From Candidatus Gottesmanbacteria bacterium (GTDB taxonomy: Bacteria; Patescibacteriota; Microgenomatia; UBA10105; UBA927), in NCBI GenBank assembly GCA_963711735.1, contig CAVQFA010000003.1:146971-210970 (forward strand): a stretch of 64,000 nt of DNA. Reading direction: 5' to 3'. The position numbers and the translations under genes were made by a program. The notes under the pieces are model-generated. The model saw only the letters and a program-made list of their open reading frames with translations, did no database searches and was not told where the DNA came from. Positions 3,555 through 55,198 of this stretch are shown here, piece by piece (positions within the stretch are counted from its first letter, which is position 1; each line of letters starts with the position of its first letter).

Positions 3555-3974
3555 TTATGTCTGCCTGCACCCCCTTGGGCCTCTGTTTCGTATGTCATCC
3601 GGCCGGGAAGGAAACGGCTCGCTTGTGTTTTTATATACAAGCCACAAGGTATCACCAGCGCAAAACGCGGTTTGCCAGTCCTTTCCGCTGGACGGAAACA
3701 CGACGCGTTCGTTCCTCTTTTCACCCTGTTTATTAACGGTGATAACCACCATGGGTTTAGGAGGAGAGACTGTCAGCGACGAAGAACAAAAAAAACCCTG
3801 CTTAAAGGATAACGTGCGGGTGTTTGCGTTCCATGATACAGCCTTTACCTCAGCGACGCCATTGCTGTCCGGTTGAAAACATGATGCTTTTGAACGGAAA
3901 ACGAGCGCATACAGCACCGAAATGATGCTCCCGATTGTAAATATCAGAATGATTACTACGGACCATTGTTTCAT
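3555..3974 (-). CDS. small membrane-anchored hypothetical protein
   Basis: ORF with an N-terminal hydrophobic helix 'WSVVIILIFTIGSIISVLYALVF'. Confidence 0.4.
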   Translation of the reverse strand: MKQWSVVIILIFTIGSIISVLYALVFRSKASCFQPDSNGVAEVKAVSWNANTRTLSFKQGFFCSSSLTVSPPKPMVVITVNKQGEKRNERVVFPSSGKDWQTAFCAGDTLWLVYKNTSEPFPSRPDDIRNRGPRGCRQT

Positions 3975-4225
3975 ATGAGACAAGGAGAATCACGCATTCC
4001 TTTATTCTCTATTGTAATCATATATTCACTACACATGCAACATATCACCAAGAACAATGCGGGTGGTTTTTTCTAAATACTAAATGTGACATACAAAACG
4101 GGTTGTTTTGTTTGAAGCGGGATAAGTCGCCCTATAAATTATAAGTTGTTTACCGAAAATCTTAAAATCAGGAAAGGTACGTGGTTTGGGATTTCTGCTC
4201 TATTCAATTAAATTTTTATAGAATA

Positions 4226-6865: not shown

Positions 6866-6927
6866 AATAACCTATAGTATATACATACAGACCCCTTTTT
6901 GTCAATCCCTTTGTTCTCTTGACATAT

Positions 6928-6968
6928 ACCACATTTCTCTTTATATTGTGGATAACTTGTCCACACCC
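6928..6968 (+). promoter_or_regulatory. dnaA promoter (TTGACA, 17-nt spacer, TATATT) followed by DnaA boxes
   Basis: 'cTTGACAtataccacatttctctTATATTgTGGATAActTGTCCACA'. TGTGGATAA is the reverse complement of the TTATCCACA consensus. Confidence 0.55.
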
Positions 6969-6996
6969 TGCAACTCCTACCCGTTTTCAATTGTAT

Positions 6997-8364
6997 ATGG
7001 ATTTATCACTACTCTGGAAGGGGGCGCTTGCGGAAATTGAGCTGTCCGTGTCGCCCGCAGTCTACAAAACACACTTTGCGTCAAGCGAGCTTGTCTCGTT
7101 TGAAAGCGGGGTTGCAAGCGTCGGGCTTCCAAACCCGATGATGCGCACCATGGTCGAGACGCGCTACTACTCGCTTGTCAAGTCCGTCCTTGACCACCAG
7201 ACCAAACAAAATACGAGCGTTCTTTTTGTCCTGCACATGAAAAAAACGCGCATGTCGGACGCTGACGCGGGACCGTTATTTTCGCCTGTCAAAGACACAT
7301 TTGCCGGGCCCGACGCGGCATCCTCAGCCCGGAGGGCCCATATCCGGACGGATCTCACGTTTGACAGTTTTGCGGTGAGCTCGTCCAATCAAATTGCCTA
7401 CGCTGCAGCAACCGCCGTTTCTAAAACGCCGGGAGGAGCGTATAACCCGCTTTTTATCTACGGCGGGGTGGGGGTCGGGAAAACCCACCTCATGCACGCA
7501 ATTGCCAACGCGATGTTTACCAAAAAACCGGGAACGCGCGCAATTTACTGTATGGGAGAGGAGTTCCTCAATGATATTATCGAAGCCATTCAGACGAAAA
7601 CTGCCCGTCAGTTCAAGCAAAAATACCGGAGCGCTCAGCTTCTCTTGGTTGATGACGTCCAGTTTATCGCCGGCAAAACAACCGCTCAGGAAGAATTTTT
7701 TCACACGTTTAACGCGGTCCTCAGCGAGGGCGGCCAGGTGGTTTTAACGAGCGACCGCCAGCCCTCGGAAATCTCCCGTCTTGAAGATCGGTTACGGAGC
7801 CGGTTTGAAGGAGGGTTAATCGTTGATGTATCCCAGCCGGACTATGAACTCCGGGTGGCAATTGTCAACATAAAATCCGCCTCGCTTGGTCTCACTCTTG
7901 ATGCGGAGGCGGCACAGACAATTGCCGCCAACACGATGGACGCCCGCGCAATTGAAGGGTTCCTGCGGAGATTGACAACCGAACTTGCGGCCGGAAAACC
8001 GGAAATTACTACAGAGCTTGTTTCCTCGCTTCTCAAAAGCCGCGGGGTAACGATGGAAGAAAAAAGAGTTGCCAAGAGGGTGAGTGCAGGAGAGGTTCTC
8101 GAAACGGTCGCGTCTTTTTTTACCATCAAACCGACGGCAATCAGGGGATCCAAGCGCGACCGTCCGATTGCCCGTCCGCGCCAGATTGTGATGTACCTTT
8201 GTAAAACCGAGCTTGGCATGACGCTTGCTGATATCGGCGGGATCCTGGGCGGGCGCGATCATACCACCATCATGCACGGGGTGGAAACAATAACGAGGGA
8301 GTTGTCCACAGATACGCGTTTACGTGAGTCTGTTGAGGGGATAAAAAGGAAGCTGTGGGTATAA
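6997..8364 (+). CDS. dnaA: chromosomal replication initiator DnaA
   Basis: N-terminus 'MDLSLLWKGALAEIE'. Walker A 'GGVGVGKTHLMHAIAN', Walker B 'LLLVDDVQFIAGK', C-terminal DNA-binding 'DIGGILGGRDHTTIMHG'. Start placed at the internal ATG at 6997. Confidence 0.95.
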   Translation: MDLSLLWKGALAEIELSVSPAVYKTHFASSELVSFESGVASVGLPNPMMRTMVETRYYSLVKSVLDHQTKQNTSVLFVLHMKKTRMSDADAGPLFSPVKDTFAGPDAASSARRAHIRTDLTFDSFAVSSSNQIAYAAATAVSKTPGGAYNPLFIYGGVGVGKTHLMHAIANAMFTKKPGTRAIYCMGEEFLNDIIEAIQTKTARQFKQKYRSAQLLLVDDVQFIAGKTTAQEEFFHTFNAVLSEGGQVVLTSDRQPSEISRLEDRLRSRFEGGLIVDVSQPDYELRVAIVNIKSASLGLTLDAEAAQTIAANTMDARAIEGFLRRLTTELAAGKPEITTELVSSLLKSRGVTMEEKRVAKRVSAGEVLETVASFFTIKPTAIRGSKRDRPIARPRQIVMYLCKTELGMTLADIGGILGGRDHTTIMHGVETITRELSTDTRLRESVEGIKRKLWV

Positions 8365-8545
8365 TATGTTTCCCTTATCCACTTATCCACAAAACAAATT
8401 GCCTTATCCACCGACTTATCCACTGGCGTTTCCACATAAACCGGATGTTATTGCAGACTGCACAATCTTGCCGTTGACATACTCTCCCGTATTTCGTACA
8501 CTTTTCCACACTCCTACTATCTACTATTACTATTAATACATACAT
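8365..8545. promoter_or_regulatory. oriC: DnaA-box cluster plus AT-rich unwinding element between dnaA and dnaN
   Basis: TTATCCACT at 8375, TTATCCACA at 8383, TTATCCACC at 8404, TTATCCACT at 8416. AT-rich 'ctatctactattactattaatacatacat' lies before the dnaN start. Confidence 0.8.
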
Positions 8546-9655
8546 ATGAAACTTCACATTCTTCAGGAAAACTTACTTAAATGTTTACAGCGAACGGGAA
8601 GAATTGTCTCAAACAAACCACAGCTTCCTATACTTCAAAATATACTTCTCGAGACACAGGGTAACCTTCTCCATATAACAGCAACAAATATGGAAACAAC
8701 GGTTATGACAACCTCCGGTGCAAAAGTGGAAAAAGAAGGAGGGCTCTGTGTACAGGCCAAACTCCTCGCGGACCTCGTCTCTTCTTTGCCGCAGGAAACG
8801 GTTGTCCTTGAGGAAAAAGAGGGAGCACTTCTCGTTTCAACGACACGGACCAAAGCAACGCTTCCCGGCATCGGGAAAGGAGAATTTCCTCCGATGAACG
8901 TGCCAAAAAAAGAAAAACGCATGATGAAGGGAGATAAAGATATTCTGGAAGGGCTCGGAAAGGCTCTTTTTGCAGCAGCAACAGATGAGGGGAGACCGAT
9001 CTTAACAGGTGTAAAAATGGAGACAAAAGGGCAATCTCTCCTTTTGGCTGCCACTGACGGGTACAGGCTATCTGTGGTTACAATTTCTGACAAAACAGGG
9101 GAAGAGTTTGATTTAGTTGTCCCCGCGCGGGCTCTTATAGAGGTCCTTAAAATTGCAGGAGAAAAAGAGGAAGGGGAAGATGGCGTTGCTTTTACCCAGG
9201 CAGAAGACGGGCAGCTGACGTTTGTTATAGGGGACACCCGCGTCATGACGCGCATTTTGGACGGAGAGTATCCGGATTTCCGGAAAATCATTCCGAAAAC
9301 CCATACGACGCGCGCAGTATTTGATGCAGGCGTTTTTTCATCAGCCGTTAAATCCGCGGCAATTTTTGCGCGGGATAACGCAAACATCGTCCGTTTACAT
9401 ATAGAGAAAAACGGCATGACGGTGTCCGCCAACACGCCGCAGGTCGGGCAAAGCGCTATAGACGTGGACGCGACGGTTGAGGGCGACGGCGGAGACATAG
9501 CATTTAACAGCAGGTTTTTGACGGAGATGCTTGCAAACTTTCCCGGCGAGGAAATTGTTTTTGAAATGACGGGGTCTCTCAATCCCGGGGTATTTCATCC
9601 GGATAAAGACGATACCTACTTTCACATCATCATGCCGGTGAGGGTACAGGGATAA
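8546..9655 (+). CDS. dnaN: DNA polymerase III beta sliding clamp
   Basis: 'MKLHILQENLLKCLQRTGRIVSNKPQLPILQNILLE' and ~369 aa length typical of DnaN. Position immediately after dnaA. Confidence 0.93.
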   Translation: MKLHILQENLLKCLQRTGRIVSNKPQLPILQNILLETQGNLLHITATNMETTVMTTSGAKVEKEGGLCVQAKLLADLVSSLPQETVVLEEKEGALLVSTTRTKATLPGIGKGEFPPMNVPKKEKRMMKGDKDILEGLGKALFAAATDEGRPILTGVKMETKGQSLLLAATDGYRLSVVTISDKTGEEFDLVVPARALIEVLKIAGEKEEGEDGVAFTQAEDGQLTFVIGDTRVMTRILDGEYPDFRKIIPKTHTTRAVFDAGVFSSAVKSAAIFARDNANIVRLHIEKNGMTVSANTPQVGQSAIDVDATVEGDGGDIAFNSRFLTEMLANFPGEEIVFEMTGSLNPGVFHPDKDDTYFHIIMPVRVQG

Positions 9656-13389: not shown

Positions 13390-15285
13390 CTATAATTTGT
13401 TCTGGGAAGTCTGTTCGACGGTAAAAATCGGGCGGGAGTTGTTTGTTTTTTTAGGTTGAATAATTTCCGGTGCGGGTATGGGTTCTTTCTTTTGAGGCAC
13501 AACCGTTTTTCTCTCCGCAATTTCCTGCGGTTTTGTCGTTGCTATGGCGTGTTCTTCGGGAGACGCGATGATCCGGACAGCCGCGTGAGCCGGGCCGGCA
13601 AAGAAAAGCCCTTCTCCGACGTCGGCAGAAAGAAGGAGGTGTTTTTCTCCCTCAGAAAGATAAAATATTTCCGCAACTTTATCTATTGCCGCTGAAGACT
13701 GTTTGAGCAGAAGCTGCATGCTTGAGTTTTGGATGATTGCCTTGCCGAGATCCTGTGACAGGAAATCTTCAACATCCTGGGTTATTGTTGTCACCCCGAG
13801 GTAATACTTGCGCGCGCGTTTGGCTATGGAGTTTAAAAATTGCGCTGAGTCGGGATACTTCATCATATACCAGGCCTCATCAACTATAAGGAGTCTCCGT
13901 TTAATGTCCCTTCGGATCCTGTTCCATATATAATCAAGGATGAGGTACATGGCGATAGGACGAAGTTCATCCTCAAGATCACGGATGGAAAAAACCGTAA
14001 GCTGATTATTGATGTTGACGTTGGTGTGTTGGTCAAATACACCGACAAGCGATCCTTTTACGAATTTTTCTATCCGGTCAGCAAGCCCCCGGGACACCGC
14101 ATCTTCCATACCGATGAGTGTTTTATATAAATCTTCTACCAAAGGAGGCTCGCGTGTATGGGTGGCCGGATCCGGCGTTATGCCTTTTTGCTTGTACGTG
14201 AGTATTAGAGCACGGTCAAGGATTGCATCTTCGCTCGGCGTAAGCTCGCCCATGACAACACGGAAAAACCCATGAAGCGACAACACTTTCTGGGAAAGTT
14301 CGCTTTCTCCGCTTATGCCTCCTGAGAGGGCAGTCAGATCAAAAGGATTTATTTTTGTTCCGGAGGAAAACGTAAACTGGATAAGAGTCCCTCCGAGAGC
14401 CTGGGTTAAAGGACCGTACTCATTTTCCGGATCAATGACGATAACCTCAGTGTTAAACATCATTGACCTGAGAATTTCAAGCTTAATGCAGTATGATTTT
14501 CCGGCACCGGATTTACCGAACACAACAGCGTTTGCGTTTTCAAGCGTAAAACGGTCAAAAATAACAAGAGATTCATTCCCCTCATTGATGCCGTAAAGGA
14601 TGCCCTCGTTTGCCGTCAGCTCTGATGTGGTGAATGGAAATGTAGTGGCAAGCGACGTGGTGTCCATATTGCGCGTAACAACAATCCTGTCCTGGGCCAT
14701 TGGAAGCGTTGTTTTAAATCCCTCTTCGGACTGCAGAAGAGTTTTTTTTGTCATAATCAGAAGTGAGGCGAGAGTTGCCTCAATCTGTTTTGTGGTTTTA
14801 TTAAGTTCCTCAATTGATTCAGCTGGAATGGTGATATAGAGTCCAAACTGGAAAAACCGTTCCGAGCCCTTGGCAAGCTCCTGTTGGAGAGAAAGCGCGT
14901 CCTCGAGAGCAACCTGTATGGAGGGTTCCACCACACGCCCGCGCTTGAAGTCCGACTGGATAGTGGCTTCCATTTCACCCACTTTCCGCTTGAGGTTTTC
15001 AAGAACCTCCTCAGAACGCGTCGGATAGATAAACATGGATATCTCGAGAGCATGGTTAAAAGAGATGATTGGCTCGAGCCAGTTGGCGCTTACGAACCTC
15101 GGGTACCCCGCAACAAAAAGTGTCCTGTGGTACTTTTCACCCACTTTTATATTGTCGAAATCTACCTCAATGGACGGAGGCGCGATAATGTCTGCTGTTG
15201 TCATCGGTCCGGTTGGTTCAGCTCCGGACGCGCTTTGTGTTTGATTGGGATTTATGATGGTGTCGAGCAGTTTTGGCAGGTTCAT
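13390..15285 (-). CDS. virB4: VirB4/TrbE/TraE-family type IV secretion ATPase
   Basis: Walker A 'VVFGKSGAGKSYCI', Walker B 'RRLLIVDEAWYMM'. N-terminal 'YHRTLFVAGYPRFVSANWLEPIISFNHALEISMFIYP' resembles Gram-positive VirB4 homologs. Confidence 0.8.
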   Translation of the reverse strand: MNLPKLLDTIINPNQTQSASGAEPTGPMTTADIIAPPSIEVDFDNIKVGEKYHRTLFVAGYPRFVSANWLEPIISFNHALEISMFIYPTRSEEVLENLKRKVGEMEATIQSDFKRGRVVEPSIQVALEDALSLQQELAKGSERFFQFGLYITIPAESIEELNKTTKQIEATLASLLIMTKKTLLQSEEGFKTTLPMAQDRIVVTRNMDTTSLATTFPFTTSELTANEGILYGINEGNESLVIFDRFTLENANAVVFGKSGAGKSYCIKLEILRSMMFNTEVIVIDPENEYGPLTQALGGTLIQFTFSSGTKINPFDLTALSGGISGESELSQKVLSLHGFFRVVMGELTPSEDAILDRALILTYKQKGITPDPATHTREPPLVEDLYKTLIGMEDAVSRGLADRIEKFVKGSLVGVFDQHTNVNINNQLTVFSIRDLEDELRPIAMYLILDYIWNRIRRDIKRRLLIVDEAWYMMKYPDSAQFLNSIAKRARKYYLGVTTITQDVEDFLSQDLGKAIIQNSSMQLLLKQSSAAIDKVAEIFYLSEGEKHLLLSADVGEGLFFAGPAHAAVRIIASPEEHAIATTKPQEIAERKTVVPQKKEPIPAPEIIQPKKTNNSRPIFTVEQTSQNKL

Positions 15286-16009: not shown

Positions 16010-17284
16010 TTATGTTTGATTTTGTCCGAATACTTCCTTGGCAAGTTTTTCCCTCGACAGCTCTTTTTGGCTTTTAGCAATAATCTCTATTGGAGGGAGC
16101 ACTGTACCGGAAAGTGTAATCTGTGCACGGTCGAACACAAACCGGTTTCTCGGATCTTCCACCTCGATAATATACGTGTTATTAGGCAGGGGGCTTGCGG
16201 CGGCAAACTGACCAAGGCGGTTTGTCTTAAGAGCACGAACCGGCACATCATCTTTATCCCGTACGGTAACCAGAACGCTTGGAAGCAAATTGTTTTCATG
16301 ATCCTTGATGATTCCCGTTACGACATTTGGAAACGTTGTGAGTTTCGGGAGTCCCGCCCGGATTGCGCTGTCCGGCGTTATGACATTAACCGATGGTTTT
16401 GAGGGCTGTTGCATTTCTTGTGCAACGCGGTTGGGTGTCTGCTGCGGTTTTTGTGTTTGTGCAGACGAAAGCTGGATACGGAGTTTTGTTATCTCGTCCT
16501 GGGTTTTGTTTTTATCCGTCAGAGCGCCCGTTAATTCTTTTTGAAGCTCTACGATACGCTGTTCGTTTTGTGTCTTTTTTTGCAGCTCTCCGCGAAGCGC
16601 AGAAAGTTCTTTTTTGAGAAGTTCCATCTCGGGATTTATTTCGGGAGTTTCCGCTTTCAGCGGGGTCGGTTCCGTCGGCACCTGTGTCTTATGAGTCGGA
16701 GGTAAAGGCGTCTTTACGCCTATCGGAGAAAAATTTTGAACACTCGGCATAGGCGTTGTTGTTGAAGGGGTTGTGCGTTTTACTTCAGTCTTTAGAGCCG
16801 GATTTTTGTTTTGCGTTGACGGAAAAAATCCCGGGAGCACTCCGGGAAAACGAGGTTGGGTTTGAGATGCTGATGGCGGAGGAAGGGTTGCCTCTTGTTT
16901 TGCAGAAGGTGTGTGATGTGTGACAGATCCCGCACTGTTACCCTGTGGTGGCTTGGTTGGAGATGCCTGCACAGGCTTTTGTGTCGGAGTCGGAACAACT
17001 TCGCGCTTCCACACATAGAGAGTCGGACTATAGATGCTCTTGATAAACGCGAGAATCCAGACATCCATCGGACGCTCTTCAATCGGAATAAACGCCAAAC
17101 CAAATCCAAGAAGAAACACCCCAACCCCGAGGGGGAAGGTAAAAATCACAGGGAGAGGAAGTTTATAGCATACATACCCGACAATGGCTCCGAGAGCTAA
17201 ATACCCGAACTGTTTGAGAGTCATGTCACCTATGAGGCGAAACTGAAAAGTAGTGACATTTTGCGGGACAGGATGTTGTTCCAT
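16010..17284 (-). CDS. membrane protein with 2 N-terminal TM, Pro/Thr/Gln-rich linker, coiled coil and C-terminal domain (VirB10-like architecture; hypothetical)
   Basis: 'LKQFGYLALGAIVGYVCYKLPLPVIFTFPLGVGVFLLGFGLAFIPI', then a P/T/Q-rich linker, then coiled coil 'ELLKKELSALRGELQKKTQNEQRIVELQKEL'. First gene of the minus-strand operon. Confidence 0.5.
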   Translation of the reverse strand: MEQHPVPQNVTTFQFRLIGDMTLKQFGYLALGAIVGYVCYKLPLPVIFTFPLGVGVFLLGFGLAFIPIEERPMDVWILAFIKSIYSPTLYVWKREVVPTPTQKPVQASPTKPPQGNSAGSVTHHTPSAKQEATLPPPSASQTQPRFPGVLPGFFPSTQNKNPALKTEVKRTTPSTTTPMPSVQNFSPIGVKTPLPPTHKTQVPTEPTPLKAETPEINPEMELLKKELSALRGELQKKTQNEQRIVELQKELTGALTDKNKTQDEITKLRIQLSSAQTQKPQQTPNRVAQEMQQPSKPSVNVITPDSAIRAGLPKLTTFPNVVTGIIKDHENNLLPSVLVTVRDKDDVPVRALKTNRLGQFAAASPLPNNTYIIEVEDPRNRFVFDRAQITLSGTVLPPIEIIAKSQKELSREKLAKEVFGQNQT

Positions 17285-17426: not shown

Positions 17427-19598
17427 ATGGATTCGCGAATACTCCTTGAAGTGAAAAACTCCCGCGATTCGGAGGAACCTGTTGTTGCTATGGAGCAGGC
17501 CCTTTCCGCCCTTGGATCGGGACACGGACGCAGGAATTTTCTGTCAGAACTTCTGTTTGGGTTGCACGACGATAAATGGATGTGTCTCGAGATAATTGTT
17601 GCCTCATCACGCATACATTTTTTCGTTTCACTCCCTCCGCATTTGGAGACTGCATTTGTAAGTCAGATAACCGCGGTATATCCCAAAATTACCCTTACTC
17701 CCGTGGGGGAGTATATAGAGAAACTTCTGTTATTGCCGCATGCGTCGGGGCAACTGGTGTTCGGAGCACCGTTTTACTACCCCCTCAAAACACATAAAGA
17801 CGTTGCAGACCTCGATACGCTGGCAGGCATCGTCGGCCAATTATCCCGTGTGCCCGACGACCAGTGCGTGCTTGTACAGTACCGGATATCTCCAGCAGGA
17901 TCATCATGGCGTCATACGGCCCAGTCAATCATAAGCAAGGGTATTCAGGATATGTCCTACCCCGAACGGACCAAAGCACACCCTCAGGCCCGCATCATCG
18001 AGAGAAAAGCAAGCGAAACCGGATATGAAACAGGCGTGAGAATTGTAGCAACCGCTCCGGATAAGGAACGCGCAGAAATACAGATGCAGTCGGTAGCCGG
18101 AGCATTCGGAATATTTTCGCTCGGGGAGGGAAACAGTTTGCAGCTCAAAGAACCGTTGTTTTGGCAGAAAACAAAGCTCGACAAAGCAATTACCCAAAGG
18201 AGCGGTTACCTTATCCCACGTAACCACGTTTTTTCCGTTTCCGAGCTTGCAACCCTCTGGCATCCTCCCGGACTTGCGCTTGCTGCGATAAAAAATATCG
18301 CGTGGGGAACGCGTTTGTCCGGCGAAGCACCGGAAAACCTACCCATTACAGTGGGTAAAGAAGAGGAAGATGCAAAAATAAACTTTTTTGCCCGTACGGA
18401 ATATAAAAACAAGCTTTCGACATTCGGTATTAAAAAAGAAGACAGGAGAAAACATGTCTATATGGTCGGAAAAACCGGCACCGGCAAATCAACCGTTATT
18501 GCCAACATGGCGATTAACGACATGAGACACGGAGAGGGTCTTGCGGTTGTTGACCCGCACGGGGATTTATGTGAAACGATTCTTGACTACGTGCCGTCAT
18601 TCCGGATCAATGATGTGGCATACCTCAATCCTTCCGATGTAGAATATCCGTTTCACCTCAATCCTCTTGAAGTGAAAAATTCCACTTACCGCGAGCTTGT
18701 AACTTCCGGAATCGTGTCGATTTTTTATAAACTGTACCACTACAGCTGGGGACCGAGGCTCGAGTATATTTTACGCAACGCCATCTCGACGCTTCTGACG
18801 GTTCCCGATTCTACGCTCCTTTCCGTGCCGGACATCCTCACCAACGATGCGTTCCGTGCAAAAACAATTGAAAAGCTTGATGACAGGGTGCTCAAAAATT
18901 TCTGGCTGAACGAGTTTAACAAGATGACGCCTCAGATCCGCATTGAATCCATTTCACCGATTCTCAACAAGGTCGGGCAATTTCTCACGTCCCAAACCAT
19001 CCGGAATATAGTCGGAAGTCCGGTGTCTACAATTGACCTTGAAACAATGATGAACGAAGGGAAAATCGTGATAGTTAATCTGTCGCAGGGTAAACTCGGT
19101 GAGGACTCAAGTGCGCTTCTCGGGTCCATGATCATCACTAAGTTTCAGCTTGCTGCTATGAACAGGGTGTATACGACGGAAAAAGAAAGACACGATTTTT
19201 ATCTCTACGTAGATGAGTTTCAGAACTTTGCAACAAACTCATTCATCAAAATTCTTTCCGAGGCGCGAAAGTACAGACTTAATCTCATGCTTGCCAATCA
19301 GTATATCGGGCAGATTGATGAGGAAGTACAAAAAGCGATATTCGGAAACGCAGGGTCTCTTATATCCTTCGGAGTCGGTGCGGCTGACGCACGGCTCCTT
19401 TCACGCGAGTTCGGTACGAAGTATACGGAAGATGAACTCGTTGCTATGGGAAATTATGAAATAGCACTCAAACTTTCTATCGACAATCACACATCCCATC
19501 CTTTTTCCGGTATGACGCTGCCGTTGCCGAAAAGCAAAAACCAAAACAGGGAAAAGGTCATCCGTGCAAGCCGCGAACGGTACTGCAAAAAGATATAA
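17427..19598 (+). CDS. VirD4/TraG/TraD-family type IV coupling-protein-like ATPase (T4SS DNA-binding domain family)
   Basis: Walker A 'YMVGKTGTGKSTVIANM', 'DFYLYVDEFQNFAT' and 'LSEARKYRLNLMLANQYIGQ'. No obvious N-terminal TM helices. Confidence 0.75.
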   Translation: MDSRILLEVKNSRDSEEPVVAMEQALSALGSGHGRRNFLSELLFGLHDDKWMCLEIIVASSRIHFFVSLPPHLETAFVSQITAVYPKITLTPVGEYIEKLLLLPHASGQLVFGAPFYYPLKTHKDVADLDTLAGIVGQLSRVPDDQCVLVQYRISPAGSSWRHTAQSIISKGIQDMSYPERTKAHPQARIIERKASETGYETGVRIVATAPDKERAEIQMQSVAGAFGIFSLGEGNSLQLKEPLFWQKTKLDKAITQRSGYLIPRNHVFSVSELATLWHPPGLALAAIKNIAWGTRLSGEAPENLPITVGKEEEDAKINFFARTEYKNKLSTFGIKKEDRRKHVYMVGKTGTGKSTVIANMAINDMRHGEGLAVVDPHGDLCETILDYVPSFRINDVAYLNPSDVEYPFHLNPLEVKNSTYRELVTSGIVSIFYKLYHYSWGPRLEYILRNAISTLLTVPDSTLLSVPDILTNDAFRAKTIEKLDDRVLKNFWLNEFNKMTPQIRIESISPILNKVGQFLTSQTIRNIVGSPVSTIDLETMMNEGKIVIVNLSQGKLGEDSSALLGSMIITKFQLAAMNRVYTTEKERHDFYLYVDEFQNFATNSFIKILSEARKYRLNLMLANQYIGQIDEEVQKAIFGNAGSLISFGVGAADARLLSREFGTKYTEDELVAMGNYEIALKLSIDNHTSHPFSGMTLPLPKSKNQNREKVIRASRERYCKKI

Positions 19599-39295: not shown

Positions 39296-41131
39296 ATGAA
39301 GATCGTTTCCGACACCGCATCCGTTATCGGCAGCAGCAACCCTACTGTTTGGGGGCAGATACTCAACGGTAAGCACGGGCATGCAGTTGTTGAAGTGAGC
39401 GGTGAAGAACAGGAAGCGGCAAAACAGGGCATTACCCTTCTTGGTGAACTTGAAAAAATTCTGGCAAATCCCCAGCAAAATCCCGAAGATCTGAAAAAAA
39501 TTTCTGCCGATCTCCGTTATCCGCACGTGGTAACGATGATTCTTTGTATACCTGTCGGCAAAATCCTCTATATAACCCTTTCCGGTGAAGGTGGTGTGTA
39601 TCTCAAAAGAGGCAATAACGTAGCGGTTCTTCTCTCGGGTGAGGGGTTTATTTCAGGAGAAGTTCGGGAGAAAGATACGCTCATTCTTGCATCCAAAACT
39701 CTCTCCGCATACATAAAAGACTGCATAGCATCATTTGACCATCTGCCGGCTGAAGAGGCAGCAGAAAAACTCACGTACCTTATCAATTCACAACACGCTG
39801 AATGGTCAGGTGCAGCGCTTATTTATCAGGTTTCGTCGCTTGAAGAGGAACCTGTTGAAACAACGGAATTGCCGGAGGTAAAAGAACAGCCCATCCGGCG
39901 GAGAATTCCTGTATGGATGTCACGCAGGGTTGCCGTGCGTGTGTTTCATGATATCCGGAACGGCCGTATACCGTATAAAGAACGCATGAAGGAAGAAATA
40001 CGGACCATAACATCAAACAAGCGGAGAGTCCTTTCTGCTGTTTTTATATGTTGTGCTGTTATTTTTCTTCTGAGTGTAGTTCTTGGAATCAGGAAACAGG
40101 TAACGGACAAAGGGAACCGCGAAACGTCAGCAGTACTTACGGAAGCGCGGCACGCGTTTGAAGAAGGAGTCGCACTTCGTGACCTCAATACTATAAAAAG
40201 CAGGGAACGGTTCAAAGAAGCGCTGAAAGTACTTGACGCTGCAATAGCAAACAAGACTGTTCCGCCGAACCTCCGTCGTGAGGTAGACACTCTCAGACAA
40301 GACGTGGCAGATAACCTGTCCGTCGTATCAGCAGAGCGGAAGGTGACCCCGTCACTTTTTTTTGATGCGGAACTTTTGAAAAAAGGAGCGAGTGTGAAGA
40401 AAATCGCCAGGGTAAGCGATACGCTTATCATCCTTGACACAAGCGCGCGGACCGTCATAGCACTTTCCGTTGCCGACAAATCCGGTCGTATCATCGGCGG
40501 CGGGGAGTATGTACAGGGCACATCACTCATAACCGGGTATGACAACCGCGCATACCTTTTTTCTGACAACGGCATTTTTATACTGCCGTTTGAAGGAAAA
40601 GCAGATAAAAAACCCGTTATTGCCAAAAACGAAGGATGGGGGAAGATAGCGGCAATGAGTGCATTTGCCGGAAATCTGTATCTTCTGGACTCGGGAAAAA
40701 ACAGGATATGGAAATATATGGCTGTCGAAAGCGGAGGATTTAGTGATATGCGGGAGTATCTCCGTCCAGACACGCTTCCTGATTTTTCCGGCGCAACGGA
40801 CATGCAGATAAACGGATCTGTCTGGGTAAGCACAAGCACGCTGGGATTCTTGAGGTTTACGCAGGGGATGGAGGAGACGTTTGTGCCGACAGGGATTGAA
40901 GGACCGGAGCTTGGTAAAAACCTGTCCGTCTATACCAGCGACGACACCGAACGGGTATACGTGCTTGATAACGCCAACAAAAGAGTTGTGGTTTTCGGAA
41001 AAGACGGCATATACCAATCCCAATATGTATGGGAAGGAGAAATAAGCCCCACAGCGCTTGCGGTGTATGAGAAAGAAAAGATAATCCTTCTCGTTTCTGC
41101 GGGAAAAATCTATTCGTTTGCGTTACAATAG
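39296..41131 (+). CDS. hypothetical membrane protein with C-terminal beta-propeller-like repeats
   Basis: Central TM 'VLSAVFICCAVIFLLSVVLGI'. C-terminal repeats of the type 'LYLLDSGKNRIWKY / VYVLDNANKRVVVFGKDG'. Confidence 0.55.
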   Translation: MKIVSDTASVIGSSNPTVWGQILNGKHGHAVVEVSGEEQEAAKQGITLLGELEKILANPQQNPEDLKKISADLRYPHVVTMILCIPVGKILYITLSGEGGVYLKRGNNVAVLLSGEGFISGEVREKDTLILASKTLSAYIKDCIASFDHLPAEEAAEKLTYLINSQHAEWSGAALIYQVSSLEEEPVETTELPEVKEQPIRRRIPVWMSRRVAVRVFHDIRNGRIPYKERMKEEIRTITSNKRRVLSAVFICCAVIFLLSVVLGIRKQVTDKGNRETSAVLTEARHAFEEGVALRDLNTIKSRERFKEALKVLDAAIANKTVPPNLRREVDTLRQDVADNLSVVSAERKVTPSLFFDAELLKKGASVKKIARVSDTLIILDTSARTVIALSVADKSGRIIGGGEYVQGTSLITGYDNRAYLFSDNGIFILPFEGKADKKPVIAKNEGWGKIAAMSAFAGNLYLLDSGKNRIWKYMAVESGGFSDMREYLRPDTLPDFSGATDMQINGSVWVSTSTLGFLRFTQGMEETFVPTGIEGPELGKNLSVYTSDDTERVYVLDNANKRVVVFGKDGIYQSQYVWEGEISPTALAVYEKEKIILLVSAGKIYSFALQ

Positions 41132-41147
41132 CGGACATTCCGATGAT

Positions 41148-41591
41148 ATGAAAATAGTACACAAACGGGCTCTGTTTGACTATACGATTTCCGAAAGACT
41201 TGAAGCCGGCATCCAGCTTACCGGTGCTGAAGTTAAATCACTCGCCGGCGGACACGCAAGCCTCGAAGGATCATTTGTTCGGATTATGGGAACCGAAGCG
41301 TACCTCGTGAATGCCCAGATATTTCCCTACATTTATGCCCGTCCGGAGGGGTATGATCCTAAACGGACGAGGAAGCTTCTTGTCCATAAAAAACAGCTGT
41401 TGAGCCTGAAATCGAAGATTGAGGGCGCCAATTTGACCCTGGTACCCATTTCTTTATATAATAAAGGACCGAAATTCAAGCTCGAGATAGGTATAGGGAG
41501 AGGGAAAAAACAGTTTGAAAAGAGGGAAAAAAAGCGGAAAGAGGACCAGAAGAGGGAGCTCGAGAGGGATTTTCGGGGAAAGATAAAATAA
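41148..41591 (+). CDS. smpB: SsrA-binding protein
   Basis: 'MKIVHKRALFDYTISERLEAGIQLTGAEVKSLAGGHASLEGSFVRI'. Confidence 0.9.
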   Translation: MKIVHKRALFDYTISERLEAGIQLTGAEVKSLAGGHASLEGSFVRIMGTEAYLVNAQIFPYIYARPEGYDPKRTRKLLVHKKQLLSLKSKIEGANLTLVPISLYNKGPKFKLEIGIGRGKKQFEKREKKRKEDQKRELERDFRGKIK

Positions 41592-41695: not shown

Positions 41696-42110
41696 GGGGA
41701 TGATTGATTCGACGGGAGTAGCTCATTGACAACCGCAAGCCGGCTTTTGATATGTAGCCGTAAAAGAAGTATCAAAAAATAATTGCTGATACAAAAGCAA
41801 AACTTCGCCAAGAACTCGCGGATCTCCGCGCATACTTCGGCGAATCTCCAAGAGCATACGCTCAGCTTTCATTAGCTGCGTAAACTCCTGTGGGACGTTT
41901 TCTAAGTTACCTTTTCCGGTTGGTGCTTGGAAGGCGGAAACAATAGCCGGGACACAGAAATCAAATTGACCGATTGATTTCGGAGAAAAAGGTCAACCCT
42001 TTCCGCAGTTGTCATGTCCATGAGTCATGCGGGAAGAATAACATGGACTACGCTTGTAGACGTTTGATATAAGCTCTTTCGGAACCGGGCTCAATACCCG
42101 GCATCTCCAC
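41696..42110 (+). ncRNA. ssrA: transfer-messenger RNA
   Basis: 5' end 'GGGGATGATTGATTCGACGGG'. 3' T-arm 'CCGGGCTCAATACCCGG' plus acceptor 'CATCTCCA' gives a G3:U70 pair. The internal ORF ends '...AYAQLSLAA' then TAA. Located directly after smpB. Confidence 0.75.
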
Positions 42111-42332
42111 AGCCGTAGCCGATCCGATTTCTAATCGGGAGGCGTACGGATGTGAATGCCCCACCTTCAGCGGGGCGCCACAGCCGGATTTTTTTTATTA
42201 TAATGCTTACGAATATGTGTGTCCCGAAGAAGGCGGACGCCACATTCCTCTTCTTATAAATACATTCTTAAGATAATCCCGGGATCATCACGTTTCCTCA
42301 CGACGATATGTATTTAATGTATCATTATATTC

Positions 42333-43890: not shown

Positions 43891-44367
43891 GTGGTTGAGT
43901 ACATAAGAAACCCAAATACAAACTGTTGTGTTTGCCATAAACCAGTATACAAAAGACCCTCACAAATTAAGTTAAATCACGGAAAAGTTTATTGTGGTCT
44001 TGAGTGTTATGGTATTTCTTGTAGAAGGGAAAAACCATGTATAATATGCGGGAAGCCTGTTTTGGCAGGATTAAATAAAAAAACGTGTAGTCGAAGCTGC
44101 TCGAACAAATTAAGAATAGGAACGCATTATCATGGAGGTTATTCACGAAGTAAAGTCAAAAATTACCAAAGTTTGAAAATGCGCTTGATTGCTCAAAGAG
44201 GGAAAAAATGTGAACGATGTGGATACGGGAAACTTGAAATATTACAAGTACATCACGTGAATAAAGATCGGAACAATAATGAATTGAGCAATTTGGAATT
44301 GATATGTCCTAATTGTCATTATGAAGAACATTTGTTACAAAAAAGTTGGATGAAAACGTTGGTTTAA
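43891..44367 (+). CDS. free-standing HNH endonuclease
   Basis: Multiple CxxC pairs and the HNH core 'CERCGYGKLEILQVHHVNKDRNNNELSNLELICPNCH'. Confidence 0.75.
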   Translation: MVEYIRNPNTNCCVCHKPVYKRPSQIKLNHGKVYCGLECYGISCRREKPCIICGKPVLAGLNKKTCSRSCSNKLRIGTHYHGGYSRSKVKNYQSLKMRLIAQRGKKCERCGYGKLEILQVHHVNKDRNNNELSNLELICPNCHYEEHLLQKSWMKTLV

Positions 44368-44543: not shown

Positions 44544-44629
44544 TGGAGAGGTCGCATAGTTGGTCTAGTGCAGCAGTTTACTAAACTGCCGTAACGCAAG
44601 TTACCGCGAGTTCGAATCTCGCCCTCTCC
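44544..44629 (+). tRNA. type II tRNA (Ser-like acceptor) with apparent anticodon ACU
   Basis: Acceptor GGAGAGG/CCTCTCC, anticodon stem-loop 'GCAGT TTACTAA ACTGC', long variable arm, T-arm 'GCGAGTTCGAATCTCGC'. The anticodon assignment is unusual. Confidence 0.5.
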
Positions 44630-44714
44630 GCCGGGTTATCTAGCCACATTTTTAATCACAAGAGAAAGATACCCCTTCCCATCCGGAAAGCATAATAATT
44701 GATATAATGACAGC

Positions 44715-51097: not shown

Positions 51098-51169
51098 GCT
51101 CCCGTAGTTTAACGGATAGAATAGGGGTTTGCGGAACCTCTGATCGCAGTTCGATTCTGCGCGGGAGCG
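51098..51169 (+). tRNA. tRNA-Arg with apparent anticodon GCG
   Basis: Acceptor GCTCCCG/CGGGAGC, anticodon stem-loop 'GGGGT TTGCGGA ACCTC', T-arm 'CGCAGTTCGATTCTGCG'. The body is near-identical to the tRNA-Arg(CCG) at 53406. Confidence 0.6.
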
Positions 51170-51212
51170 CACGAGAAATTTCTTGACAAGGTACGAGTCT
51201 AGAAATTTCCGT

Positions 51213-51340
51213 GCTCTGAGGAGTGGTAACGACGAAGAGCAACATTATAACGTTTGAAATGGCTCTGAGGAGCGTTAGCGACGAAGAGCGACCTTGATTA
51301 ATGTACCGCTGAGTTGCGATTAGCGACGAAGAGCGACATT
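51213..51340 (+). repeat. three tandem ~34-nt repeats with core 'TTAGCGACGAAGAGCGAC' downstream of tRNA-Arg (locus A)
   Basis: 'gctctgaggagtggtaacgacgaagagcaac', 'gctctgaggagcgttagcgacgaagagcgac', 'ctgagttgcgattagcgacgaagagcgac'. Confidence 0.7.
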
Positions 51341-51507
51341 TCAGATAAGAAGGTGGGGTGTCGGAGTGGTTAAACGGCCAGGTCTCGTCCCAGAAGTATG
51401 TTTCCGAATTGAAAATTCGGAATACAACTTCGGGATCCCGTACACTAAGCCAAATCTGAAAGATTTGGCAAGTGGTACGGGAATAACCTTAGTAGTGCGG
51501 AGAGGTG

Positions 51508-51583
51508 TGCCGAATGGTAAGGCACTGGTCTCGAAAACCAGCGTCCTGAAAGGGACTTGCGAGTTCGACTCTCGCCCTCTCCG
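51508..51583 (+). tRNA. tRNA-Ser (anticodon CGA)
   Basis: Acceptor GGAGAGG/CCTCTCC, anticodon stem-loop 'CTGGT CTCGAAA ACCAG', long variable arm, T-arm 'GCGAGTTCGACTCTCGC'. Confidence 0.75.
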
Positions 51584-51633
51584 CACTATCAGGGAGGCAC
51601 AGGTTCGAATCCTGTATCCTCCGCCTAGCAATT

Positions 51634-52170
51634 ATGAAAATTATTGTTGCCTCGACAAATCCGACGAAGATCAATTCATCAAAAATGGGTTTTATCCGCA
51701 TGTTTCCGGACATTAATGAAATTTTTATCAAAGGAGTATCCGTGGACTCCGGCGTCAGTCATCAGCCGATGAGCGACGAAGAGACGTATAAAGGAGCGGT
51801 GAACCGCGCAGGTGAGGCGAAAAAACAAATTCCGGCAGCAGACTATTGGGTGGGGATAGAAGGCGGATGCGAGGAGCTGGACGGATCCATGGAGGCATTT
51901 GCATGGATTGTGATATTGGATAGAAAAGGAAAAAAAGGCCAGGGGAAAACCGGTACGTTTATCCTGCCGAAAAAAGTTGCGGATCTTGTCCGGCAGGGTG
52001 TCGAACTCGGTGAAGCGGACGATATCATATTCAAACGGAAAAATTCCAAACTCCAGAACGGCGCAGTGGGTATTCTCACCGACAATGCACTGGACCGGAC
52101 GAGATATTACCGGGAAGCGGTTATTTTAGCACTGATTCCGTTTAAAAATTCTAAACTTTATGAACGTTAA
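51634..52170 (+). CDS. inosine/xanthosine triphosphatase, YjjX family
   Basis: 'MKIIVASTNPTKI...GVSVDSGVSHQPMSDEETYKGAVNRA...ADYWVGIEGG' aligns to YjjX-type non-canonical NTPases. Confidence 0.7.
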   Translation: MKIIVASTNPTKINSSKMGFIRMFPDINEIFIKGVSVDSGVSHQPMSDEETYKGAVNRAGEAKKQIPAADYWVGIEGGCEELDGSMEAFAWIVILDRKGKKGQGKTGTFILPKKVADLVRQGVELGEADDIIFKRKNSKLQNGAVGILTDNALDRTRYYREAVILALIPFKNSKLYER

Positions 52171-53405: not shown

Positions 53406-53477
53406 GCTCCCGTAGTTTAATGGATAGAACGCGGGCCTCCGAAGCCTGTAATGGCAGTTCGACTCTGCCCGGGAGCG
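53406..53477 (+). tRNA. tRNA-Arg (anticodon CCG)
   Basis: Acceptor GCTCCCG/CGGGAGC, anticodon stem-loop 'CGGGC CTCCGAA GCCTG', T-arm 'GGCAGTTCGACTCTGCC'. CCA encoded. Confidence 0.8.
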
Positions 53478-53509
53478 CCATTTTAAACGCAACAAACAGC
53501 GTTTAAAAT

Positions 53510-53616
53510 GGCTCTGAGGAGCATTAGTGACGAAGAGCAACATTGATTCTGAGTTGCGATTAGCAACGAAGAGCAACGTTGGGTGTGAGTCGCAATCAGC
53601 GACGAAGAGCAACAAT
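53510..53616 (+). repeat. three tandem repeats of the same 18-nt-core family downstream of tRNA-Arg (locus B)
   Basis: 'gctctgaggagcattagtgacgaagagcaac', 'ctgagttgcgattagcaacgaagagcaac', 'gtgagtcgcaatcagcgacgaagagcaac'. Confidence 0.7.
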
Positions 53617-54195
53617 ATGAAACACATTGTCAATCTCATTTTCGAAGCAGCGGTATTGAAGCGCCTGCAAAGGACCGGCTGGCAAATCCTCGGCGACAAT
53701 CAGGAATCCGTCGGTGAACACTCCTACATGACTGCAGTCATTGGATATTTGCTGGCCCGCATGATTTCGAAACCCAAACGGTCTATTGATCTGGAGAAAG
53801 TTCTCCTTATGAGCATATTCCATGATTTCCATGAGGCACGGACCGGTGATGTGGATAAGATATCAACATTTTATGTTACGCGGGATGAAGGTCGTGCAAA
53901 CGATGACATTTTCAGTACAACAGACCCTGAAATGGCAGACACGCTCGTTGAATACGAGAAGAGGGAATCACCTGAGGCGAAGATCGTCTATGAGGCAAAC
54001 ATCGTAGCGCTTCTGGTAGAACTGAAAGCACTGCAGGAAAAGGGGAATAGAAATGTGGATGATTGGATAGAGGGAAACTGCAAACGTCTGCGTATCCCTG
54101 AGGCGAAACAGTTAGCGAAGGAAATATGTTCGTCAAACACCCAGGATTGGTGGAAAGATATACGGAAAAAGCTCCACAAGTCATTTGCCGCGTGA
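53617..54195 (+). CDS. HD-domain hydrolase (YfbR-like 5'-deoxynucleotidase family)
   Basis: 'ESVGEHSYMTAV...IFHDFHEARTGDV' is the HD metal-binding motif. Start set at the ATG at 53617; the upstream ORF extension is a translation of the repeats. Confidence 0.7.
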   Translation: MKHIVNLIFEAAVLKRLQRTGWQILGDNQESVGEHSYMTAVIGYLLARMISKPKRSIDLEKVLLMSIFHDFHEARTGDVDKISTFYVTRDEGRANDDIFSTTDPEMADTLVEYEKRESPEAKIVYEANIVALLVELKALQEKGNRNVDDWIEGNCKRLRIPEAKQLAKEICSSNTQDWWKDIRKKLHKSFAA

Positions 54196-54268: not shown

Positions 54269-55198
54269 TCAGAGATATCCGCAGCGGACGAAGGGTATAT
54301 AGAAATATCCGAACAGAGTCAGAAAAGGCTTGTGTTTTATGGTGCATATAAAAATGCCCCGCGGAAAATACACCCGAATAAGTTCTTCAGAATATGGTGT
54401 AGGGGTAGGAAATATAACAGGTGTTGGTGTCGGTGTTTCGTTAACTGACGGAGTCGGAGTAGCAGTAGGTTCAGGAGTTGGTGTTGCTGTGGGTTCAGGA
54501 GTCGGTGTCGGAGATTGAATCGGGATTTCTGTCGGAGTTGGTGTGGGTTCAGGAATCGGTGTGGGTGTGAGAGTTGGCAATATAGTGGGTGTTGGAGTTG
54601 GTGTTAAAGTCGGTGTTGCGGAAACGGATGCACTGTTTTGAGGATCCGGAACGGTTCTTAGAATGAAATCATCCGCATTATTATCAGTATCCTGCATACT
54701 GATCCGCTCAATACTTTGGTTTGCGGGTGGATTAGTCGGGAACGGGGAAGATTCATAATCTGCTGCTGTCCCGAACCCCACTTTATCAACGAGCGTTATC
54801 CCCGCATCGCTGTAGAGAAGCACTGCATAGTTATTTTTCAGAGCATTGCTGGGTGCAGAATAGGGAATATCCAGAGGAACGCTCTCGTTGTATCCGCTTG
54901 AATGTCCGATAAGAAAAAATCCATGAGTTGGAATTGTTCCGTTGAGTACCGCCACGAGATTTTCCTCCGTACCGCTAGAATTTTTCCTTCGGAGTCTCCA
55001 TCCGCTCATGATAATTTGAGATGAAGTGGGATTGTACAACTCAACAAATTCGTCGGTATCGGTTTCACCGGATATCTGGACTTCGGAAATAACAAGTGAT
55101 GAGGAAGCGGAAAGTATAGGGGTGGGAGAACGGAAAAACAGAAAAGCCACGATTAAACCAAAAAGACACACTGCACAAATGGGCAGAATTCGGCGCAT
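54269..55198 (-). CDS. secreted lamin-tail-domain (LTD) protein with Pro/Thr-rich C-terminal tail
   Basis: Signal/TM 'ICAVCLFGLIVAFLFF'; 'LVISEVQISGETDTDEFVELYNPTSSQIIMSGWRLRR' is LTD-like. Long 'TPTPEPTATPTPEPT' tail. Confidence 0.65.
   Translation of the reverse strand: MRRILPICAVCLFGLIVAFLFFRSPTPILSASSSLVISEVQISGETDTDEFVELYNPTSSQIIMSGWRLRRKNSSGTEENLVAVLNGTIPTHGFFLIGHSSGYNESVPLDIPYSAPSNALKNNYAVLLYSDAGITLVDKVGFGTAADYESSPFPTNPPANQSIERISMQDTDNNADDFILRTVPDPQNSASVSATPTLTPTPTPTILPTLTPTPIPEPTPTPTEIPIQSPTPTPEPTATPTPEPTATPTPSVNETPTPTPVIFPTPTPYSEELIRVYFPRGIFICTIKHKPFLTLFGYFYIPFVRCGYL

Follow-up and report, generated by a model that had tools for sequence, protein, structure and literature searches.

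Tandem hairpin repeats behind two tRNA-Arg genes in a Candidatus Gottesmanbacteria genome

Both tRNA-Arg genes in a 64,000-nucleotide stretch of a Candidatus Gottesmanbacteria genome (assembly GCA_963711735.1, contig CAVQFA010000003.1, positions 146,971 to 210,970 of the forward strand; hereafter the window) are followed by short tandem repeats, and the question raised by these arrays is whether they control the genes behind them or belong to a more ordinary class of repeats. A previous sequence-only reading had described a hairpin and three repeat units after each tRNA-Arg gene, and had considered repeated operators, a structured leader RNA or elements resembling repetitive extragenic palindromes (REP) as possible functions. 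The repeat family proved real and statistically solid. Our analysis points, at what we judge to be an even chance, to young, lineage-specific, non-coding tandem hairpin repeats residing in two paralogous tRNA-Arg 3′ trailers; the arrays fit none of the known repeat-RNA systems compared here, and they do not act as a conserved regulator for the nucleotide-sanitation genes found downstream.

Six units with a common fold

The basic arrangement was corroborated by ARAGORN, Rfam, RNAfold and an 18-mer search: each of the two tRNA-Arg genes is followed by a long hairpin (H1 at the first locus, H2 at the second) and then by an array of three units. All six units lie on the + strand, at 51213-51337 and 53511-53613 only. 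When up to three mismatches are allowed, the 18-mer TTAGCGACGAAGAGCGAC gives six matches in the window, confined to both loci, versus a chance expectation of 0.03. This core had been described as shared by five of the six units, but it is exact in only two (U2 and U3), carries two mismatches in three and three mismatches in one, and the part that stays unchanged in all six is the 9-nt ACGAAGAGC; the flanking R-A-C is nearly so, while 5′ arm, loop and spacers vary among the units. Nor is the unit spaced at about 34 nt as first proposed: from start to start, array 1 has periods of 49 and then 45 nt, and array 2 a constant 36 nt. Each unit combines two conserved blocks, YTGAG (5 nt) and ACGAAGAGCRAC (12 nt), with two variable parts of 11-12 and 7-8 nt that are related among units and self-complementary. 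A covariance model of the six units (R1, filters off) scores them at 32-57 bits, the next best match in the window reaching 10.9 bits. The units, together with a relic found in the first array, are:

51213 to 51243, + strand: U1, type A; covariance model 49.2 bits; −9.8 kcal/mol, z −3.45
51251 to 51262, + strand: relic of an H2-like hairpin (3′ arm), CGTTTGAAATGG (H2 counterpart CGTTTAAAATGG); repeat family D3
51262 to 51292, + strand: U2, type A, 18-mer exact; 55.7 bits; −11.8 kcal/mol
51306 to 51337, + strand: U3, type B, 18-mer exact; 50.0 bits; −11.2 kcal/mol
53511 to 53541, + strand: U4, type A; 56.7 bits; −9.6 kcal/mol
53546 to 53577, + strand: U5, type B, GUUGC/GCAAC; found by the covariance model; −10.4 kcal/mol, z −3.9
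53582 to 53613, + strand: U6, type B, GUCGC/GCGAC, weak lower stem; 50.7 bits; −8.3 kcal/mol

On the + strand all six units adopt the same hairpin, consisting of a lower stem, tandem G·A/A·G mismatches, a G:C pair, an upper stem and a loop of 4-5 nt, so that each unit is an imperfect palindrome of 28-32 nt forming a rod of about 12 stacked layers. The lower stem reads GCUCU/AGAGC in U1, U2 and U4; the other three units have a weaker one, that of U6 being the weakest. In type A (U1, U2 and U4), as illustrated by the layout of U1 (GCUCU-GA-G-GA-GU-GGUA-AC-GA-C-GA-AGAGC, with AAC after it), the upper stem contains a second tandem G·A and then two more pairs. Type B (U3, U5 and U6) has U:A, U·G or C:G instead of this second mismatch, again followed by two more pairs; thus, the U3 upper stem GUUGC/GCGAC shows Watson-Crick or G-U pairs where type A has the inner tandem GA. 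The internal stems noticed earlier in some units do exist, yet they are not separate kinds but variants of one fold present in all six. A K-turn reading of CUGA...GAAGA was discarded, for its non-canonical stem is unpaired in most units and the symmetric tandem-GA hairpin folds instead.

Folding is asymmetric between the strands. Single units reach −8.3 to −11.8 kcal/mol on the + strand (z −1.9 to −3.9) versus −3.3 to −8.2 kcal/mol on the − strand, and the whole arrays −59.6 versus −39.6 and −51.3 versus −43.0 kcal/mol, the + strand z values of the arrays being −5.1 and −6.4. Judging by the G-U pairs and the G·A design, RNA (or the top strand) is a better candidate for the folded form than duplex DNA. 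In the alignment of the six units 81.7% of the stem cells are paired, versus 30-50% with slid partners, and double-sided changes occur at two pairs, namely the loop-closing pair (C:G to U:A) and one in the upper stem (U:A, C:G or U·G). Such covariation, coming from six related sequences, is suggestive and does not amount to proof.

The units have also been considered as coding sequence, either for short MALRS(V/I)SDEE peptides, for a TKSN-repeat N-terminal extension of the HD-domain protein encoded behind array 2, or as a decayed SDEE-coding fragment. The peptide translations reported previously, MALRSVSDEERP and MALRSISDEEQH, each closed by a stop, are correct; the two 12-codon open reading frames (ORFs) share start and stop positions, the reading frame of array 2 continues into the HD ORF (GTG 53527), and a 16/17-nt look-alike of the core codes PMSDEE in the NTPase gene adjacent to array 1. 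In spite of these observations a coding nature is extremely improbable. No Shine-Dalgarno sequence was seen before either ATG, and both ATGs sit at the 3′ ends of stems (the H2 3′ arm in array 2, a predicted long-range stem in array 1). Three of the four differences between the mini-ORFs are non-synonymous, and array 1 shifts frame between its units. The HD homologs start at the MK(H/N)... position, longer calls being translated tRNA, and the similarity to the NTPase gene ends within 17 nt.

That look-alike, CGATGAGCGACGAAGAG (51767 to 51783, + strand, within the NTPase_I-T ORF; repeat family D4), matches the unit core at 16 of 17 nt, and the same 20 nt appear in a relative that is 86% identical (L156). 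A second 17-nt look-alike with one mismatch is located at 3773-3789, antisense to ORF 3555-3983. Among 150 shuffled unit sets, 4 produce such a match in the window. CGATGAGCGACGAAGAG, which is conserved coding sequence in L156, is probably not a repeat unit, and its link to the repeats is unproven.

Spread between the two loci and absence from relatives

The two arrays resemble each other more than the genes that precede them. The segments 51251-51299 and 53500-53548 (repeat family D3) are 90% identical, and 51309-51340 and 53549-53580, i.e. U3 and U5 (repeat family D9), are 91% identical, whereas the two tRNA-Arg genes share only 81% identity. Besides, the copy in array 1 holds the relic CGTTTGAAATGG of the H2 3′ arm with no 5′ arm. 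From this module identity of about 90%, together with the relic, we infer that a module composed of the H2 3′ arm, a type A unit and a type B unit was copied between the loci; further units might have been produced by local tandem duplication. Pairing is preserved at the two stem positions where the copied modules differ (G:C to G·U and U·G to U:A). The two diverged copies argue against an assembly artefact. Derivation of the units from tRNA-Arg itself, by way of an acceptor-stem mimic (GCUC/GAGC+G), was rejected, as alignments to all tRNAs were no better than those of shuffles (p 0.14-0.97).

By its proteins the organism belongs with Gottesmanbacteria-like members of the Candidate Phyla Radiation. 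Syntenic relatives with 59-72% protein identity were compared, the best non-self identities being 65% for the HD protein, 72% for a 172-aa protein encoded upstream and 86% for the NTPase. Three of these loci (L148, L149 and L151) keep the order tRNA-Arg(GCG)...tRNA-Ser(CGA)...tRNA-Arg(CCG) followed by the HD gene, and L151 also retains SurE and a 137-aa gene. No unit was found in the five loci that share the tRNA order (L148, L149, L151, L161 and L162), nor beside the HD, NTPase or SurE genes of L148, L149, L151, L153, L156-L158 and L162; L156, which carries the 86%-identical NTPase, is too short to reach the tRNA-Arg flanks. In L148 (6057-6069) the HD ATG comes 5 nt after the CCA of tRNA-Arg(CCG), while in L162 (990-1008) 11 nt separate tRNA-Arg(GCG) from tRNA-Ser(CGA) and 3 nt the tRNA-Ser discriminator from the SurE ATG. 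These short gaps argue for co-transcription and show the arrays to be insertions. Adjacency of tRNA and HD gene is widespread, since in many HD homologs the over-called N-terminus turns out to be the translation of a tRNA 3′ end. The NTPase gene had no tblastn match in L148, L149, L151 or L153; a different 127-aa gene precedes SurE in L151, and in L156 the NTPase (51634-52170 in the window) stands next to SurE.

Homologs of the units were likewise missing from pattern scans of JGI metagenomes and IMG/VR and from blastn searches of phages and plasmids. A metagenome scan with CTGAG..AGYRACGAAGAGCRAC returned 29 loci, made up of an unrelated repeat on contigs of the MWW series plus single coding matches, and three IMG/VR pattern scans yielded nothing or two coding chance matches. 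Scanning GTDB genomes with ACGAAGAGCRAC..ACGAAGAGC, a poorly chosen pattern, gave at least 118 loci with spacings nearly all multiples of three, and the four read among the matches listed were T-K-S-D coding repeats of high-GC genomes. At gathering score Rfam recovered tRNAs and tmRNA only, E-value scans of small regions giving noise. The sequence-only reading had held that dozens of copies at random intergenic sites would indicate a generic REP-like element, and absence from all relatives an artefact; this check, run in part, shows that copies of the core are not scattered over many random places in the window, and that the relatives read have none. The unrelated repeat is a conserved sequence of about 190 nt containing CTGAGTGAAAAAGCAACGAAGAGCAAC, found on L119, L121, L122, L130, L133, L134, L140, L144 and L146 (MWW and Ga0209512 contigs); it occurs twice on L121 and on L122, in direct orientation about 8 kb apart, and looks like the ends of a mobile element.

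The absence from relatives bears directly on whether the units form a binding-site array for a sequence-specific DNA- or RNA-binding factor that co-controls both transcription units. Each unit would then offer AGYRAC-GAAG-AGCRAC, with hexamers 10 nt apart, plus ACGAAGAGC, to a regulator such as a winged-helix protein reading direct repeats. The invariance of ACGAAGAGC and near-invariance of R-A-C amid a changeable 5′ arm, loop and spacers fit such an array, as do the spacing of the hexamer pair by one helical turn on reading of the sequence and the location of both arrays just 5′ of downstream genes or tRNA. However, the relatives maintain tRNA-Arg(CCG) before HD and tRNA-Arg(GCG) before SurE without any unit, and the orthologous loci read therefore display no conserved regulon signal. 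The absence of the NTPase gene from L148, L149, L151 and L153 and the tRNA sequences between array 1 and the NTPase further weaken the operator proposal. In addition, the arrays are placed downstream of the tRNA promoters and not at them, what follows array 1 is tRNA-Ser sequence, both the G-U pairs and the unequal folding of the two strands speak for RNA instead of duplex DNA, and the conservation could merely reflect young age. We consider such a binding-site array unlikely, and the shared operators originally suggested are not sustained.

Several observations nevertheless sit uneasily with young, lineage-specific hairpin repeats. Covariation is weak with six sequences, its observed score being reached by 22 of 500 shuffles. 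The 3′ arm (ACGAAGAGC, then R-A-C; 9-12 nt) is more conserved than the fold alone demands, and this excess could reflect sequence-specific recognition; counted by arm, 4 of 15 versus 7 of 12 columns are variable, a difference that is not significant with six units. Placement at tRNA-Arg genes only, with no array at five tRNA-Ser genes or the tmRNA gene, is unlike a freely dispersing repeat and needs targeted insertion or copying helped by tRNA-Arg homology. The strict association and the invariant 3′ arm are the two features left unexplained by a purely neutral repeat, and they lend some weight to two rival readings, a specific binding site and an element that targets tRNA-Arg.

Comparison with known repeat families and array RNAs

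Among the functions first considered, a REP-like element comes closest in kind. Like REP/BIME and further families of intergenic stem-loop repeats, among them the BOX elements of Streptococcus pneumoniae (surveyed in PMC2267715), the units are non-coding imperfect palindromes of about 30 nt arranged in tandem modular arrays and restricted to a lineage, here with presumable co-transcription. All six form hairpins in the range of about 20-40 nt that characterizes REP. REP families have tens to hundreds of copies dispersed over extragenic regions of a genome; the 64 kb of the window contain two loci, both after tRNA-Arg. The units are all direct tandem copies on one strand with neither inverted pairs nor a GTAG-type head, and tandem G·A mismatches are part of their conserved design. 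No RAYT (Y1_Tnp), transposase, integrase or reverse transcriptase was detected among the scanned window ORFs of at least 130 aa, the set to which the protein-domain searches below also refer. The REP-like proposal hence fits as regards the intergenic imperfect palindrome, while the direct tandem orientation, the restriction to two loci within 64 kb and the lack of a RAYT in the window set the units apart.

A different possibility is that the units belong to a known class of repeat-array RNA, namely TIGR-like guides, a ToxI-like antitoxin or hammerhead-like self-cleaving units. The 36-nt period of array 2 equals the unit length of both tigRNAs and ToxI, and TIGR systems are common in the Candidate Phyla Radiation (CPR) to which the host belongs (PMC12045711); even so, we regard membership in any of these classes as very unlikely, for the reasons that follow.

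TIGR arrays accompany an adjacent Nop-domain Tas gene and usually comprise 5-15 units of 36 nt, in which repeats of 8-12 nt alternate with two spacers of about 9 nt (PMC12045711). Resemblance is found in the period of array 2, the CPR host, the alternation of conserved and variable blocks, and the CUGA and GA motifs of the units, which recall box D and K-turn elements. By contrast, the units lack the succession of edge repeat, 9-nt spacer, loop repeat and 9-nt spacer, and their variable parts are homologous and self-pairing. There are three units per array, the periods of array 1 are as long as 45-49 nt, and the array is not followed by a terminator. Pfam revealed no Nop domain in the scanned window ORFs, four unannotated window ORFs had no sequence match in PDB, and the genes flanking the arrays are syntenic housekeeping genes. 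A TIGR array was rejected, with no Tas gene nearby and the wrong pattern of repeats and spacers. A CRISPR reading was likewise rejected.

Type III antitoxin arrays (ToxI, CptI and TenpI) consist of two to six direct repeats of about 34-45 nt upstream of a co-transcribed protein gene. Tandem direct repeats just 5′ of a protein gene, probably co-transcribed, are found here too, but what lies downstream is an HD phosphohydrolase in one case and tRNA and NTPase in the other, instead of an endoribonuclease of ToxN/AbiQ type, with no terminator in between, and relatives have the same downstream genes without an array. PADLOC found no toxin match among eight flanking proteins. This class was also rejected, the HD_3/YfbR-like protein not being a toxin of ToxN, AbiQ, CptN or TenpN type.

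As for hammerhead ribozymes, the CUGAGGA-G...C-GAA of type A resembles the CUGANGA...GAAA core, and a stem I-like pairing GGCUC/GAGUU is possible between neighbouring units. The best alignment, of UGAGGAG...GACGAA in U4 to RAGATH-1 (RF03152), reached 18.4 bits, far below the 56.3-bit threshold, and an Rfam scan of a larger region contained no hammerhead match. The motif was dismissed since C3 is deleted (in the other register a G occupies position 17), A15.1:U16.1 is missing, stem III is poor, and the three type B units lack G8 and A9.

The tRNA neighbourhood and its transcripts

The genes and hairpins that accompany the arrays are:

51098 to 51170, + strand: tRNA-Arg(GCG), by ARAGORN; Rfam tRNA 56.6 bits; CCA not encoded
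51170 to 51213, + strand: hairpin H1, CACGAGAAATTTC...GAAATTTCCGTG, by RNAfold, directly after tRNA-Arg(GCG)
53406 to 53480, + strand: tRNA-Arg(CCG) with encoded CCA, by ARAGORN and Rfam
53479 to 53510, + strand: hairpin H2, CATTTTAAACGC...GCGTTTAAAATG, by RNAfold, after tRNA-Arg(CCG)
53617 to 54195, + strand: ORF of an HD_3/YfbR-like phosphohydrolase, by Pfam and homologs

Arrays accompany both tRNA-Arg genes of the window, none of its five tRNA-Ser genes and not the tmRNA gene. The tRNA-Arg(GCG) is identical to that of L148. The 5′ arm of H1 has homologs 3′ of tRNA-Arg(GCG) in L151 and L161 (CATTGACATTTCTT and CATTGAAATTTCTT), which identifies H1 as ancestral, unlike the units. H2 has a perfect 12-bp stem that begins within the CCA of tRNA-Arg(CCG); it has no T-run and is lacking in L148, L149 and L151. 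Pfam confirmed the gene identities assigned previously, i.e. NTPase_I-T of the YjjX family, SurE and HD_3/YfbR-like. Location immediately upstream of these genes holds for array 2, which abuts the HD start codon (53617) and ends 3 nt before it. It is wrong for array 1, since about 290 nt of tRNA-related sequence intervene before the NTPase_I-T ORF (start 51634): an orphan 5′ half of tRNA-Ser, two hairpins, an intact tRNA-Ser(CGA) and a tRNA 3′ fragment, in this order.

We infer that the arrays are transcribed with the tRNAs, because of promoter-like boxes, the lack of any terminator-like site and the start of the next gene a few nt after the tRNA in relatives. On direct reading of the sequence, TGTATAAT is a promoter-like extended −10 box about 10 nt 5′ of tRNA-Arg(CCG), and GATAAAAT lies upstream of tRNA-Arg(GCG) at a similar distance; no terminator-like site appeared in the array region or after H1 or H2. 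The + strand being that of the tRNAs and of the downstream genes, the arrays would be transcribed from the tRNA promoters within tRNA-tRNA and tRNA-mRNA co-transcripts. Excision of the tRNAs would then leave the downstream RNA with stable hairpins on its 5′ side. U6, the unit with the weakest lower stem, places GAAGAG 7 nt upstream of the HD ATG. Roles in RNA stability, termination and processing have been proposed for families of REP/BOX type, and the most likely effect here, if any, would be similarly generic, that of a structured spacer or barrier on RNA processing or decay. Of the structured leader RNA suggested earlier, a single hairpin type on the strand of the genes and probable co-transcription remain, but nothing indicates a specific regulatory role.

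The exact position of both loci at tRNA-Arg 3′ ends, which are nearly identical, also brings to mind the scar of a mobile element that targets this end, whether as arm-type repeats bound by the integrase at an old attL/attR, or as a small non-autonomous hairpin element such as a miniature inverted-repeat transposable element or an IS200/IS605-like one. The surroundings have been remodelled, with a disrupted tRNA-Ser(CGA), a tRNA 3′ fragment and an NTPase gene not found in L148, L149 and L151, and homing endonuclease genes are present among the tRNAs of the window and of relatives. Such an origin is nonetheless quite unlikely: the scanned window ORFs include no integrase, transposase, RAYT or reverse transcriptase; there is no displaced tRNA-Arg 3′ fragment, and neither terminal inverted repeats nor target duplications were seen on reading; the units are all direct tandem copies, and the flanks are syntenic housekeeping genes. 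Arms of att sites in particular were rejected, with no integrase in the window and only the two intact tRNA-Arg 3′ ends as matches.

The tRNA-Ser sequences behind array 1 have a history of their own. The stretch 51352-51387 is the 5′ half of a disrupted tRNA-Ser(CGA) (acceptor, D arm and anticodon stem to position 35). The tRNA-Ser(CGA) of L148 and L151 is matched better by this half than by the intact copy of the window (51499-51584), and the half has a GGTGGGG end that complements exactly the 3′ strand of the acceptor, CCCCACC, in L156 (86%). About 110 nt with two long hairpins separate this half from the intact, different tRNA-Ser(CGA), after which comes a fragment at 51599-51628 (T arm and acceptor) that shares 90% identity with the tRNA-Ser(TGA) 3′ end. 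Folded as one piece, 51351-51632 is closed by a stem resembling an acceptor (−130.6 kcal/mol, z −7.9). Replacement of a tRNA gene, or an insertion, may account for this stretch. ARAGORN also predicts a tRNA-Ser with anticodon ACT at 44545-44632, an unmodified A34 being unusual in bacteria, and this gene shares 96% identity in T arm and acceptor with tRNA-Ser(CGA) (51559-51584). Homing-endonuclease genes lie among the tRNA genes, with HNH at 43891-44367 in the window and GIY-YIG and LAGLIDADG in relatives (L149, 1555-1815 and 4796-5782; L151, 852-1145 and 2886-3146); selfish elements seem to insert preferentially in this tRNA cluster.

ORF starts located 3-8 nt after a tRNA or tRNA-like helix were observed in L148, in L162 and in the window, where the NTPase ATG comes 8 nt after the tRNA 3′ fragment (51626-51636). 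Co-transcripts punctuated by tRNAs, and mRNAs with hardly any leader, are thereby suggested for Gottesmanbacteria.

Elsewhere in the window, tandem repeats of 24/54 nt at 54450-54618, inside the − strand ORF 54269-55198 (a Lamin Tail Domain protein), encode a PT-rich low-complexity linker. Type IV secretion-like genes are located at 45-842, 13390-15285, 16010-17284 and 17427-19598, with 6919-9655 also listed, and comprise two TraG/VirD4-type coupling proteins, a VirB4-like ATPase and a PrgI-family protein; the coupling-protein genes share a 140-nt repeat of 75% identity (441-580 and 19251-19390). These genes flank dnaA-dnaN, and the window therefore probably includes the replication origin region. 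The tmRNA gene (41696-42112), with a long predicted tag peptide (ADTKAKLRQELADLRAYFGESPRAYAQLSLAA), adjoins smpB (41118-41591).

If the arrays are indeed young hairpin repeats in tRNA-Arg trailers, they are ordinary lineage-specific repeats for which labels such as riboswitch, operator or guide-RNA array would be unwarranted, and they illustrate how, in a CPR bacterium with a reduced genome, small hairpin repeats originate and pass from one paralogous tRNA trailer to another. We see a slim chance that the GA-mismatch hairpins are instead specific punctuation or 5′-end-defining signals, their invariant ACGAAGAGC being read by a dedicated protein or nuclease; they would then make up a novel class of elements that govern processing or stability and go with the tRNA-mRNA co-transcripts of CPR bacteria, and a specific factor reading them would give a handle on tRNA-mRNA processing. 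The ORF starts adjacent to tRNAs may be the more interesting biology, as a hint of tRNA-punctuated transcripts, the processing of which is unstudied in CPR.

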